In this document: positions 6,388 through 62,924 of the stretch, one piece after another
Position numbering within the stretch: the stretch's first letter is position 1
How the letters are laid out: the number at the start of each line of letters is the position of its first letter
Assembly: GCA_012295275.1 (NCBI GenBank)
Contig: CM022676.1
Location: 248,001-312,000, forward strand
Direction of reading: 5' to 3'
DNA length: 64,000 nucleotides
Source: Chrysomallon squamiferum
Taxonomy: Eukaryota > Animalia > Mollusca
Notes under the pieces: generated by a model
What the model saw: the letters and a program-made list of their open reading frames with translations, nothing else
Told to the model about the DNA's origin: nothing
Databases searched by the model: none
Translations under genes and position numbers: made by a program

Positions 6388-6407
6388 CTAAGTAATTAAA
6401 TGTTCAT
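6388..6407 (-). CDS. Candidate terminal coding exon of gene A (DEHLIT*); duplicate at 3179-3198
   Basis: tgtctgttcag acceptor; phase-1 compatible with the 93-nt exon; TAG stop. Confidence 0.3.
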
Positions 6408-6617
6408 CTGAACAGACATATTGACAGACAGTGGACAGATGACTGGTGAGACTGCAGTGAGACAGACAGACAGACACACAGGTGTACACAAATCAAGGTG
6501 CAGGACGGATGAATGGATACAGACAGACACAGATAAACAGTTGAAGAGACAGGCAGGTATGTATGTTTATTGTATTACAGACAGACAGACACACACACAC
6601 ACAGTGGTTTACTTTAC

Positions 6618-6710
6618 CTTTTTCTGAGCTTAATCTAATGTGTATTGGTTCCTGCACCCTCGTATCTGAAGTTGACTCCAGTTTCTTGTGTGGAATGTGG
6701 TCTTCTTCAC
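6618..6710 (-). CDS. 93-nt phase 1-1 exon, putative cytoplasmic-tail exon of IgSF gene A
   Basis: Canonical AG/GT boundaries; hydrophilic open frame; lies downstream of the gene A Ig exons on the same strand. Confidence 0.55.
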
Positions 6711-6899
6711 CTGCAACACAAAACAACATCCACAACAACGTCCTTGTTCCATCACAAAAGCTGTTTTATAATTAGTGACGTTATTAGTGATCATTAAAAC
6801 TAAATGAATGAATGTGTAACGACATATATCGGCTATTGTGTGTCAAACAAAGTTAACTATAACAAAATGGTAAATATGTTTTATATTCAAAACACAGTG

Positions 6900-8240
6900 T
6901 AAAGAGCTGTGCAGAAAGTATCACAGTTTATTTAAATTTTAAAACAAGTTCAGGGTGGAAATGAAATGATTCCATCACACAAATCTTTCTGAATCTGCCT
7001 AAGATGATCCACCAAAATGTGGCGCACTGTCACAGTACACTGAGTTTCTGTCACAGTACACTGACAGTGGTCACACTGAGTGGACGATCCTCCTTTCAGG
7101 ACAAATGAATGTGTGAAACAAGTAAGATCTGCGAGCACGACACAAGACTGACTCATCCTTCCTGCACCGCCTGTAGGAGGACTGCCACTCTCACAGGACT
7201 GCCACTCTCACAGGACTGTCACTCTCACAGGACTGTCACTCTCACAGGACTGTCACTCTCACAGGACTGTCACTCTCACAGGACTGCCACTATCCTGGGA
7301 CTGCCACTCTCACAGGACTGCCACTCTCACAGGACTGTCACTCTCACAGGACTGTCACTCTCACAGGACTGCCACTCTCACAGGACTGTCACTCTCACAG
7401 GACTGCCACTCTCACAGGACTGTCACTCTCACAGGACTGTCACTCTCACAGGACTGCCACTATCACAGGACTGTCACTCTCACAGGACTGTCACTCTCAC
7501 AGGACTGTCACTCTCACAGAGTGAAGTTTGCTCGCGATCGGTCCGTTCCAGCCATACTGCCAAACTGAACAAATACATTGGTGACTTTGATGTTTAAAAT
7601 CATTGTGAGGCACAGCAGCCTCGACTTGAATGCAAAGGAATGTTTAATTTCTTTCAGGGCTTTAAGAATGGTCTGAATTTCAGAAATGAAAACCAATGCC
7701 GAATCACACAACCTCATGGAAAAAGTTATGTCCGACGGAAAAACTGCAACACAAGCTACAGAATTCCCATCCCGTGATCAATCCGTATAAATAGTGATAA
7801 AATCACGGAATCTTTCTTTTATTTCCATGAAAAATTGATGATAAATAATAGGATCTGTGCTCTCTTTTTAAGATGCATAAGATCCAGCACAATGTTTGGT
7901 GGTTTAACACATCACAGTAGAAAAATAATATGCGTAGGTTTTTCCAAAATGTCTGAAAAGTCAATGTTGGAAGCAGTTAAAAGCTGACTGATGAGAAGAC
8001 CAAGTGTTTTAATGGCACTCAGCCGTGCATCAAACAACCTTACATGTTTGTTGTCAAATACCGTGTCATGTGCAGGATGTGACGGTACAGGTGTTATGTG
8101 TTGGAGAGAAAGCTTTGCATGTCTAACATCCAAACAAGGTTCGGGTGTGTCAACGTACAAGCTCTGCACAGGAGATGTTGTGAATGCACCAAGTCCCTGG
8201 TTGTGTATGGGATCTAGCACTGGGTTTTTAAACACTGGGT
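6900..8240 (-). mobile_element. 5'-truncated, decayed non-LTR retrotransposon (I/Nimb-like LINE): post-RT region, RNase H, zinc finger
   Basis: Minus strand reads LDPIHNQGLGAFTTSPVQSLYV, then FITIYTD*SRDGNSVACVAVFPSDITFSMRLCDSALVFISEIQTILKAL (RNase H YTDGS motif with a nonsense codon), then CDHCQC..VRHILV. Interrupted by a minisatellite. Confidence 0.88.
7177..7519. repeat. 17-bp minisatellite (ACTCTCACAGGACTGTC)n inside the LINE
   Basis: About 20 units; source of ORF 7109-7597. Confidence 0.95.
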
Positions 8241-59616: not shown

Positions 59617-61019
59617 AAACGTCACCTTTTTACACTTGGATTGACACATAAATAAATGTGACACTTATTTAAATATCACTGTCTTTTGTCAGCAGAGTTT
59701 ACTCATTAAAATATATCATTTTTTGATGACTTGATTATTTAAATATTATTGACTATGTATGTTCTTATTTTATGTGTGTGTGTGTGTGTGTGCATTACTT
59801 GTATTGCTCATTTATTTAATTGTCAGTAGTTCATGTTAGAACATTTTACTGTTAAATGAAATGTTATAACTTACATTATGCATATTTATTCATTAAACTG
59901 TCTTGTCTGTCACTTGTTTTAATTTGTTTATTAAAATGTCACTTGAACTGTCATTATTTTAAAAATATCAACTTGTTCTCACTTTTTAAACATGTCAGTT
60001 CAGTTATTTAAATATATCACCTATTGATTCATTTATTTAAATATTTTAAATATGTTGATTTATTTATTCATTTATATGTGACTAATTTAGTTAAAACTTC
60101 AATGGCAGTTAAAAAGATTAAGTAAACAAAATGATAAACAGATGCATGATAACATAATGGATGGAAGGATAAATTGCAAGCTGAACACATGAAGAACAGA
60201 CTGGTAATTGAGAGCATGTTAAGTTATATTTATGCTGAGTAATTTAAATGTTATTTTTGTCTAATGTGACAGATATTCAGTGAAAATGTTTTACATAAAT
60301 ATATATATATATATATATACGAATTGTTGTTTTGTCACAGAAACTTTAAAATTATAACATGTTCTACTTGCACTTCCTTGAACTTTTAGAAAAGAAACAT
60401 TTATTTCCAGTTATTTAAATATAATGAGTCACTGTCACAGGGTTGTTAATTATGCAGGACTTGTCTTTGATTTGTTTTTGCCTTTGATTCATTGTGTCAG
60501 ATGAATGAATAATTTTTTTTAATGACACCCAAAATGAATATCTGTTTGACATTATATAATTAAGTAGTAAAATAGAATACACATTTCAAAAGTTTATAAA
60601 ACACAATGCAAAATATTAACATTATATTTCACTGTTTTCCATACATGGATTTTTCCAAGCCAAATAAAGCAAAATGAGTGATGTGCAGATTATAACAAGA
60701 TAACAGTGGCACTGAGAATGTTTACTAATTTTATTTAAAAGATATTTGAATTAAAATTTTATGAACAGATGATACAAATTCTGTAAAGAGACAAAACATA
60801 CTGTGTTCTTACTATTGTGTGAAAAGTATACACACAGTAAATATTGTTTCAGCAGCAGAAGCTTGTGCTCTTTTGTTTCTACACAAACTGTAGTAATCCA
60901 TCCTGAATAATGGAAAACATCTCTTGTTTCTAATGAAGTACGTTGTGATCACATCAAAACAAATAATTGCAATGTATGATGAAAACTGCATTACTCTCCA
61001 CTATGAAGAGTAATAGTAA

Positions 61020-61550
61020 GAAAAAACATGGGCAGAATACATTTGCATTTTCATCTGTATCAGTATAAAATTACCCTGTTTCCACCGGTTTCTTTTTCTT
61101 CTTGGGCAGATTTTTAGTTCCTTAGAAGAAGAACAACAATTGTTAAAGTTTATGACAATACTGGCCTCTTTTCTTGTTCTTTTTTATTTTTTTTTATTAT
61201 TATTATTATTATTATTTTGAGTAGACTGTTCTAAAATATGAGCTCTTACAAAGCACAAAAATTCCTAAGACAAAAAATAAATTTAAAAAATAGGAAAAAA
61301 AAATGTATCTTGCTTCTGACTAATTGATGGATGCATGGAAAAAATACTGTGAAGATGGATGGATGTTAGTATCTGAACAAATAAATGAAGTGGGAAAAAA
61401 TATGAAAAATAATATTAAGAAAAAACAGGCAGAATACATTTGCATTTTCATCTGTTTCAGTATAAAATTACCCACTTTCCACCAGTTTCTTTCTCTTCAC
61501 AGGCAGCTCTCTAATTCCTTAGAAGAAAAACAGAAACTAGATTATGATTT
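61020..61550. repeat. Local direct duplications (~61020-61140 vs ~61420-61540; ~61325-61410 resembles ~58945-59050)
   Basis: Shared GGCAGAATACATTTGCATTTTCATCTG..CAGTATAAAATTACCC and AAGATGGAT.GATGTTAGTATCT.AACAAATAA blocks. Confidence 0.75.
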
Positions 61551-62357
61551 TTTTTTTTTTTTTTTTTTTTTTTAAATATAAACAAAAGACCGAACACAAA
61601 ATAAATCTTATAAATCTAATCATAACTGTATACTTGTTAAACTAATCTGTGACTCCTGCTGCCTGAAACAGTGTGAGGCACTGGGTGGTCAGTGCAAGTG
61701 AAACTTATTAATGATTCAAAATGTTCTCACACACACACACATCAAATCAGAGTTAAGTCAACAAGCCAAGTTCTGAGCTACATCTGAAACACACCACGCT
61801 GTTAAAATTATTTATTTATTTATTTACTTTGTAACATATATTGATTTATTTATTATTGTTTATTTATTTATTTATTTACTTACTTATTTTTTATTTACTT
61901 ATTCATTTACTTACTTTTTATATGTTTGTTTAGTTTTACTTCCCTATTTATTTTTTATTTACCTCTTATTAATTTATATACTAATTTATTTATTTATTTA
62001 TTTATTTATTTTAGCTTTGATGGTAAAGAATGTATAAACTTACTGTCAAATAACTCCAAGAGAGAGAGAAAAATGATTATTTTATAAACACAAAGATGTT
62101 GACAAACTCATCACTGCACCCTGACATAGACTGTTCACAAGAGTATCAAACTATAGATTACAAAATAAAACATTTTTTTCTTTTCTTTTTTAAATTGGGA
62201 TAAATCCAAGAAATATGACTTGACCTCTGAGAAGATCTGCAAAGCATAACATCATCTAACAATTTTGTTTTTTCATTCACTTCTTGGAAGACTGACTATT
62301 TGAGAGTACAGTAATATAACAGTAAAGATGTGAAGTAATGATGTACAGAAAACTCAC

Positions 62358-62924
62358 GTCTGTGGTAGATGAGAACACACAGTGCTGCTAGGACAAACAT
62401 TGATGCGACCATTATGAGTGGAATCCACTGAAAGAATGATCCTAGGAATCGTGCTAATGAAAAGTTAAGTATACAAATTTCAGCAAGTACCTGTGGGGGT
62501 GTTTGTCTCTGTGTGTGTGTGTGTTTTATTATATTCATTTATTTACTTATTTATTTATTTATCATAGTTGGATATAAAGTTATTCTGACTTATGCTTACG
62601 GTGCATGGTTGTACGTTCGTAGTACTCTTTCGGAAACGCTAAAATAAAATTATTAAAGTGAACATTAAATAATACTATCAACAACAACAAGAAATAATAA
62701 CCACAACCTATAATAATAATAATAAAAACAACAATAACAATAACAAAACAACAACAATAATAATAACAAAAACAATAAAAATAATAATCATAATAACAAT
62801 AATTATTATTTTTTATTTTATAGATTTCTTTTTCTTTCATTCGTTTATTTTAGATATTTTTATGCAGATATAAAAGTATTTGAGTCTTAATACTTACCAA
62901 TTTGTTTCTGTGCCTCTATATCAA
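62358..62924 (-). CDS. Gene G (partial, 3' part): stalk microexons and transmembrane exon of a single-pass membrane protein extending beyond the window
   Basis: Phase 1-1 exons 62898-62924 (DIEAQKQI), 62600-62638 (AFPKEYYERTTMH) and 62358-62453 (PRFLGSFFQWIPLIMVASMFVLAALCVLIYHR), with gtaagt, gtaagc and gtgagt donors. Confidence 0.75.

Follow-up and report, generated by a model that had tools for sequence, protein, structure and literature searches.

We analysed a 64,000-nucleotide window of the genome of the mollusc Chrysomallon squamiferum (assembly GCA_012295275.1, contig CM022676.1, positions 248,001 to 312,000; 'the window' is this whole stretch, and coordinates count from its first base), which holds five genes, A to E, with exons for immunoglobulin (Ig) domains. 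The window is AT-rich (31% GC) and carries many microsatellites. A six-frame scan for Ig motifs, combined with reading of the sequence, identified 20 Ig exons in five groups of 5, 5, 2, 5 and 3. Pfam Ig families were matched at E ≤ 0.01 by 19 of the 20, comprising 18 intact exons and the frameshifted second Ig exon of gene A (A Ig2), both halves of which matched; the twentieth, A Ig5, had no Pfam match yet kept the Cys/Trp/Tyr-x-Cys core in the alignment. With these core residues (Cys, Trp and Tyr-x-Cys), the exons belong to the immunoglobulin superfamily (IgSF). RNA and variants were compared for gene B, and the other four genes are sequence-predicted models:

6388..13168, minus strand: gene A (models; Pfam)
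13168-13090, minus: A signal exon
12864-12628, 12401-12118 (284 nt, frameshifted), 11677-11375, 10973-10722, 9902-9642, minus: A Ig exons
6710-6618, 6407-6388, minus: A putative downstream exons
18477..26087, minus strand: gene B, 996 amino acids (Pfam; RNA contig)
26087-25608, minus: B 5′ untranslated region (UTR) exon
25047-24895, minus: B signal exon (ATG at 24970)
24728-24468, 23723-23424, 22629-22321, 21844-21593, 21332-21069, minus: B Ig exons
20267-20166, minus: B transmembrane (TM) exon
19903-18477, minus: B charged tail exon
28819..33847, plus strand: gene C, 291 amino acids (predicted model)
28819-28885, plus: C signal exon
29350-29388, plus: C micro-exon
30235-30486, 30925-31203, plus: C Ig exons
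32666-32770, plus: C TM exon
33714-33847, plus: C tail exon
34647..40686, minus strand: gene D, 569 amino acids (predicted model)
40686-40620, minus: D signal exon
39958-39665, 38686-38390, 37721-37434, 37232-36936, 36168-35881, minus: D Ig exons
35342-35262, minus: D TM exon
34744-34647, minus: D putative tail exon
45664..53381, plus strand: gene E, 336 amino acids (predicted model)
45664-45730, plus: E signal exon (weak)
46876-47127, 47361-47612, 49339-49626, plus: E Ig exons
51708-51812, plus: E TM exon
53335-53381, plus: E putative tail exon

In these models, as in two further ones (F and G, below), every internal junction has AG/GT ends and phase 1-1; one Ig domain is encoded per phase 1-1 exon, and frames are open in all exons but A Ig2. 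Signal, TM and tail exons are present in models B, C, D and E, which thus have a type I layout with an Ig-only ectodomain and no catalytic domain. The initial annotation of this DNA had proposed five spliceable single-pass IgSF genes in a compact cluster of mixed orientation. The grouping of the 20 exons, the fit of their junctions and the spliced RNA of gene B bear this out, except that A is without a detectable TM exon; the orientations are indeed mixed (A−, B−, C+, D−, E+, with F−), but a non-Ig gene, G (55.6-59.6 kb), is interposed between E and F. The last-exon tails of B, C, D and E, which had been described as unrelated, measure ~474, 43, 31 and 14 amino acids and are indeed dissimilar by eye.

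No tail carries an immunoreceptor tyrosine-based activation motif (ITAM), and no inhibitory counterpart (ITIM) occurs outside a TM helix; the sole ITIM-like string sits in the TM helix of gene B. No lectin, fibrinogen, FN3 or TIR domain was found among 145 open reading frames (ORFs) scanned with Pfam. Beyond the Ig exons, 118 complex ORFs (of 290 ORFs of at least 58 amino acids, low-complexity ones excluded) were without FN3, lectin, fibrinogen or any other credible domain, their Pfam scan giving three sub-threshold matches, all on low-complexity ORFs.

Splicing and variation of gene B

Eleven sequencing runs were listed for gene B; nine carry all or part of it, two of these being RNA, and their contigs were aligned to window positions 18200-26400. 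One RNA contig (X7 record 18; 2,386 nt) holds the 5′ UTR exon, Ig1 to Ig5 and the start of the tail in the modelled order. An unplaced part of 153 nt fits the length of the signal exon and another, of 103 nt, is one base longer than the 102-nt TM exon; from these lengths we infer the presence of both exons in the RNA. Four joints are listed for X7, all with CT..AC ends, and the joint between Ig4 and Ig5 is repeated in X9; none of the joints was seen in two DNA runs. Gene B is thus real, expressed and spliced as modelled, and its exons form the transcript that had been proposed. Both RNA libraries in which it was found are labelled metatranscriptomic, a label that gives no tissue. In runs X10 and X11 almost none of the gene's words were present, which is no proof of absence.

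Variation is distributed unevenly along the gene. Among the best 40 of 52 variant rows there were 17 coding variants: the ectodomain (1,386 nt) holds 5 classified changes, none of which alters a residue, and the tail holds 12, of which 8 are nonsynonymous (0 of 5 versus 8 of 12; Fisher p = 0.029, although the sites are not independent). The probability of 0 of 5 nonsynonymous changes by chance under random transitions is 0.004. Across the five Ig exons, the X7 transcript differs from the window at 4 bases and 0 residues, the differences in this case being fully listed. When unlisted differences on overlapping contigs are counted, the ectodomain differs from the window at no more than 10 of 1,386 bases in X4 and no more than 2 in X2, these and X7 being the three runs with good coverage. 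Gene B is covered at ≥99.5% identity by DNA contigs from other samples; one of the runs compared may come from the sample of the window itself. A hyperpolymorphic immune or allorecognition receptor is not what gene B looks like: its ectodomain is nearly invariant, with 0 of 5 classified changes nonsynonymous. Because B barely varies between samples, the gene argues against a self/non-self marker. Genes other than B may yet have immune, symbiont or gamete roles.

The 474-residue charged tail of B is encoded by a single 1.4-kb exon, where most residue differences among samples fall (8 of 12 listed changes). It ends in Tyr-Ser-Ile, and the tail of C, which also carries Cys-x-x-Cys and a Cys-Cys pair, ends in Glu-Glu-Phe-Ile; we take both termini to resemble the PDZ-binding ends of adhesion proteins of the CADM/neurexin type.

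Domain classes and molluscan relatives

Between genes, the Ig domains are 21% identical at the median (range 11-37%, 156 pairs), and they sort by position into three classes. The 83-residue class (A4, B4, C1, E1 and E2) consists entirely of 252-nt exons from four genes, whose 83 columns align without a gap; the membrane-proximal class (A5, B5, C2, D3/D5 and E3) is present in all five genes; and the long class of ~98 residues comprises A2, A3, B2 and B3. A and B correspond domain for domain. The order long, 83-residue, proximal is complete in A and B, and its last two classes recur in C and E, whereas D has the proximal class and a distinct N-terminal pair of C2-set_2-like type (Pfam) but no 83-residue class. 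The ectodomains are therefore related yet very divergent, as had been noted. A tree of the 20 domains did not resolve their history (3 of 17 branches starred).

Searches beyond the window pointed to a diffuse set of relatives. A word-indexed search of 5.8 billion proteins with B Ig2 gave 15 candidates, none at E ≤ 0.001, which is weak evidence. A HMMER search of 1.84 billion proteins with B Ig3 returned 708 matches at E ≤ 0.001, ranked by repeat number and none near orthologue-level identity. Best single-domain identities against 202 fetched proteins were 26-41%, comparison with solved structures gave generic Ig matches only, and D Ig5 found only generic Ig clusters in an Atlas search. Thirty proteins were looked up by name: the top-ranked are long TM poly-Ig proteins labelled hemicentin- or titin-like, from Gigantopelta, Pomacea, Batillaria, Aplysia, scallops, Mytilus and Saccostrea, and the rest are mostly fish CD22/CEACAM-like proteins. 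The molluscan names are automatic annotations, not tested functions, and the expectation that pipelines would call the window genes hemicentin-like agrees with the label of their nearest relatives:

'Hemicentin-1-like' or 'titin-like' relatives: Gigantopelta XP_041372116.1 and XP_041372297.1; Pecten XP_033758139.1; Pomacea XP_025101325.1; Mytilus XP_071159627.1; Saccostrea XP_062603011.1; Argopecten XP_069133862.1

Mapped along six mollusc proteins, the window domains follow a common order of classes. Pecten P0056 has 24 long-class domains, one 83-residue domain and one proximal domain, followed by the TM segment; Pomacea P0092 and Batillaria P0093 end in the same way (the P0093 record is without a TM segment), and Gigantopelta P0059 terminates in two proximal-class domains. 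Domains 1 and 2 of Gigantopelta P0203 are best matched by D Ig1 and D Ig2, the former weakly (E = 7e-4), so that the N-terminal pair of D resembles that of P0203. The number of Ig domains mapped was 12-26 in five relatives, and as many as 57 stretches of one scallop protein were matched. For a profile of the proximal class, the top five scores were molluscan, and its best match lay 19-28 residues before the TM segment in five of them, and in neighbours. A long-domain profile scored 43.9-64.0 bits in 14 of 15 named mollusc proteins and at most 40.7 in 16 of 17 named non-mollusc proteins; scores of the 83-residue class and of the joint two-domain module do not separate mollusc from fish proteins. 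In a tree of the last-two-domain module (four window modules together with the 24 best of 59 candidates, D being left out because it is without the 83-residue class), the 4 window rows and 10 mollusc rows were split from 14 others at 99/99; of those 14, 13 bear fish names, P0025 being counted among them on its UniRef label.

To judge from these likenesses, the window genes probably belong to a mollusc-wide family of TM poly-Ig proteins, as short, fast-evolving members. Shared with that family are the Ig-only ectodomain, the order of domain classes, a single TM segment often followed by Cys, and tails without ITAM. The window genes differ in having 2-5 Ig domains (relatives have 12-50 or more), in their identities of 22-41% and long branches, and in lying several side by side within 47 kb. 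Since the classes map position by position onto this family, the idea of an orphan family is not supported. A search for short relatives with residues 2316-2630 of Gigantopelta P0059 gave 10 matches, none named molluscan. No literature on this cluster, or defining the molluscan family, was found in a search that left most subscription papers outside. The two Gigantopelta proteins P0059 and P0203 share near-identical Ig repeats; P0203 has a signal peptide and N-terminal domains without a TM segment, P0059 a TM segment without a clear signal peptide, and each could be one half of a single gene, or the two could be adjacent paralogues.

Several named families were considered and set aside. Dscam, NCAM, L1, nephrin and Robo carry FN3 domains after the Ig array; here there is no FN3 match, best single-domain identities are 26-41% and structure matches are generic. 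True hemicentin (fibulin-6) is secreted and combines vWA, a very long Ig array, EGF and fibulin C-terminal modules, whereas the window genes have TM exons and none of the 145 ORFs has a vWA or EGF match in Pfam. The domains that define the FREP/CREP/GREP (VIgL) proteins (PMC10875847) had no Pfam match. The annotation had likewise matched no gene one-to-one with Dscam, NCAM, nephrin or FREP.

Probable turnover and neighbouring features

Two regions of the cluster look recently duplicated. In gene D, the last four Ig exons form a duplicated pair (Ig2-3 versus Ig4-5; 96% and 99% protein identity), in which 5 of 6 coding differences alter a residue. A 3.2-kb unit is also repeated in tandem and takes with it the putative tail exon of A, whose second copy lies at 3499-3407. 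The frameshift of A Ig2 falls in a 7-base A run, and two scans found no TM exon between Ig5 and the putative tail exon, the second recovering 5 of 5 known TM exons. One candidate for the missing exon, the hydrophobic frame at 9293-9170, was rejected for its low splice scores, wrong phase and intronic low-complexity sequence. A decayed element and a satellite fill part of the interval in which the exon would be expected. Gene A is probably a pseudogene or a secreted form.

965-4146 and 4146-7336, no strand assigned: tandem duplication of a 3.2-kb unit, 96.9% identical over 2,795 aligned bases
7517..8300, minus strand: decayed relic, presumably of a retroelement by its resemblance, beside a 17-bp satellite (7178-7519); no Pfam match

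The fresh duplication and decay that had been described are thus visible as a recent-looking D pair, a tandem unit and a frameshift, which may be genomic or may come from the assembly. That all three are artefacts of stitched haplotypes and homopolymer error, over a stable and old cluster, is a possibility to which we give rather low weight. It would fit the position of the frameshift in an A run and the small difference between duplicate copies, 1.1-1.2% of bases. Six long DNA contigs of gene B, however, differ by 0-0.48% between samples; since the duplicate copies differ by more than these alleles, the comparison leans towards real duplications. The missing TM exon of A is independent of the homopolymer, and artefacts would touch the claim of turnover only, not the genes.

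Downstream of E lie two further gene models:

55631-59616, plus strand: gene G, non-Ig, between E and F
55631-55700, plus: G exon, strong signal peptide
56238-56375, 56778-56894, plus: G exons, acidic and Ser/Thr-rich
58893-58914, plus: G exon of 22 nt
~59376-59616, plus: G last exon
62358..62924, minus strand: gene F, partial
62924-62898, minus: F micro-exon
62441-62358, minus: F TM exon

Gene F had been counted as a sixth, partial TM gene. Its TM exon was found, but as an IgSF gene it has no Ig exon inside the window, its upstream exons falling beyond the edge. Two alike 46-nt candidate exons with basic runs (61120-61075 and 61517-61472, minus strand), ~400 bases apart, are possible tail exons of F. 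Gene G had no Pfam match and no TM exon was found for it. Its 22-nt exon, read by eye, carries a Lys-Arg pair; its last exon is basic and Pro-rich, with six Cys and the C terminus Ser-Leu-Val, and was without a usable Atlas match. By its sequence, G resembles a precursor that is secreted and has an acidic pro-region. Elsewhere, minisatellites of 57 bp (17511-18081), 29 bp (16412-16828), 17 bp (7178-7519) and 33-42 bp (48091-49327) are present, the 57-bp array (10 copies, 98%) lying just beyond the 3′ end of gene B. Broken ORFs at 14500-15600 (plus strand), without Pfam match, we take to resemble a decayed gag/protease region of a long terminal repeat (LTR) retrotransposon.

Proposed fixed-partner adhesion and its rivals

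The reading that we favour, at a probability of roughly 55%, is that the five related Ig genes are short members of the mollusc-wide single-pass poly-Ig family and serve as adhesion or recognition receptors with fixed partners. Gain and loss of symmetric phase 1-1 Ig exons would let such a family grow and shrink (2-5 domains here). Old duplications would have given rise to paralogues of 2-5 domains, whose identity of ~21% suggests that the cluster is old; D would later have been duplicated internally, and A has probably either decayed or become a secreted form. Every ectodomain is predicted to bridge the gap between cells and to bind a set partner carried by a second cell or by the matrix, which would entail purifying selection within species together with deep divergence between paralogues. 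In this the receptors would work in the manner of other Ig receptors of the cell surface. Their short or charged tails, which have no catalytic domain, would engage scaffolds and not ITAM/ITIM kinases and phosphatases.

Several observations weigh against this. The polymorphism comes from one gene in at most 4 samples from 2 studies; the contigs omit rare alleles and were subject to an 88% likeness floor, and those overlapping the B Ig exons hold up to six unlisted differences. Purifying selection can, besides, act equally on receptors that detect conserved microbial patterns. As to family membership, fish CD22/CEACAM-like proteins do equally well on the 83-residue class and the two-domain module (P0200 and P0068 rank second and third), and identities to the mollusc family are just 22-41%. 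In the module tree the branches of the window rows reach 2.2-4.4, which is very long, these four rows group in only 29% of bootstrap trees, the starred 99/99 split may merely show the fish proteins as a clade, and the protein set was fetched with B Ig3, itself part of the long-domain profile. Finally, the related-looking Ig-TM clusters of pearl oyster and Biomphalaria are haplotype-variable and have been read as immune.

The leading alternative, which we hold to be possible though clearly less probable, is that the genes encode innate-immune or symbiont receptors, each paralogue binding a conserved microbial pattern or host glycan and signalling through an adaptor, with A as a secreted, opsonin-like form. 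Clustered Ig-TM genes with variable Ig number have been proposed as immune receptors on scaffold 9 of the pearl oyster (PMC9646362), and Ig-only single-pass genes in diverse clusters on LG16/LG5 of Biomphalaria sudanica likewise (PMC10875847). The window resembles both as a group of clustered molluscan single-pass genes, some B. sudanica genes also being Ig-only; compared by description, those clusters differ in often adding FN3 or C-type lectin domains and in sitting in haplotype-divergent regions. The presence of B in two metatranscriptomic libraries, the origin of the closest single proximal-class match in the symbiotic vent snail Gigantopelta, and duplication with decay, which fits birth-and-death evolution, are consistent with an immune role. 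The fish CD22/CEACAM-like proteins, which score well, point the same way, and vertebrate CD22/Siglec and CEACAM clusters share with the window tandem paralogues and short Ig domains of C2/I type, alike in length and score. The window tails, however, are without ITIM, and the CD22/CEACAM-like rows fall on the opposite side of the 99/99 split. The N-terminal V-set domain of Siglecs has a sialic-acid-binding Arg and that of CEACAMs is without the core disulfide; by eye, all five N-terminal domains here keep both core cysteines and lack the Siglec arginine motif. Further evidence against an immune role is the lack of ITAM and ITIM, the lack of a lectin, fibrinogen, FN3 or TIR domain among the 145 ORFs scanned, and a B ectodomain in which no amino-acid variation was found; the metatranscriptomic label does not give the tissue. 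Bivalve 'hemicentin-like' Ig genes are described as abundant and linked broadly to adhesion, with functions largely unknown (PMC13093298), and a review of invertebrate IgSF proteins gives wider context (PMC11999971).

Improbable, in our estimate, is a polymorphic allorecognition or gamete-recognition complex with allele-specific homophilic binding, such as Alr of Hydractinia. Relatives of the window genes occur in solitary molluscs without colony fusion. The layouts are alike (a cluster of divergent IgSF genes of single-pass type, with each domain on its own exon, dissimilar tails and pseudogenes), with ~24% pairwise identity in the Alr complex (bioRxiv 10.1101/2022.03.04.482883) against 21% here; moreover, polymorphism was examined in one of five genes, and 5 of 6 coding differences between the duplicated exons of D alter a residue. 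Alr1 and Alr2, however, have tens to hundreds of highly polymorphic alleles, whereas B is nearly invariant, and Alr proteins combine Ig domains of non-canonical type with an Fn3-like spacer, and their tails often carry ITAM/ITIM (same source). The window has canonical Ig cores and no ITAM/ITIM, and the last Ig exon adjoins the TM exon directly in B (RNA) and in C, D and E (models), with no spacer exon of Alr size. The polymorphic TM cluster of Biomphalaria glabrata (PTC2), to which the locus had also been likened, is a loose analogy: it too is a cluster of single-pass genes in a mollusc, but the TM segment is the one known domain of PTC2 proteins, and their alleles differ at 3-85% of residues (PMC7494358), whereas the window genes carry Ig domains and the X7 transcript shows 0 residue differences from the window in the B ectodomain. 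PTC haplotypes can for the most part not be aligned with one another, in contrast to the ≥99.5% identity of the DNA contigs over gene B. Most improbable of all is that unrelated or conserved single-copy IgSF genes lie together by chance: the low identities, the different C2-set_2-like type of the two N-terminal domains of D and the failure of the window rows to form one supported clade in the module tree would fit, but the gapless 83-residue class in four genes and the proximal class in all five speak against it, as do best single-domain identities of 26-41%, the repeat-driven matches of B Ig3 in 1.84 billion proteins and the lack of any match to B Ig2 at E ≤ 0.001.

Fixed-partner adhesion by short poly-Ig receptors also admits a bolder version, which is speculative and on present evidence unlikely: that a mollusc-wide 'accordion' family, with Ig counts from 2 to more than 50 through gain and loss of symmetric exons, has in this lineage yielded a compact group of short, quickly diverged paralogues that would act as a paralogue-specific cell-recognition code, fixed within a species and differing between species. 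By analogy, it might be a molluscan counterpart of wiring codes of the Dpr/DIP type, or a code for housing bacterial symbionts.

Clustered Ig-TM genes are not new to molluscs, having been reported from pearl oyster and Biomphalaria, and the locus is for that reason only modestly surprising. What the locus adds is a caution: a divergent Ig-TM cluster need not be hyperpolymorphic, and not every such cluster should be read as allorecognition or immunity. Its small, expressible members, with 2-5 domains and one verified transcript, also make the ligands of a family of thousands-of-residue proteins testable.

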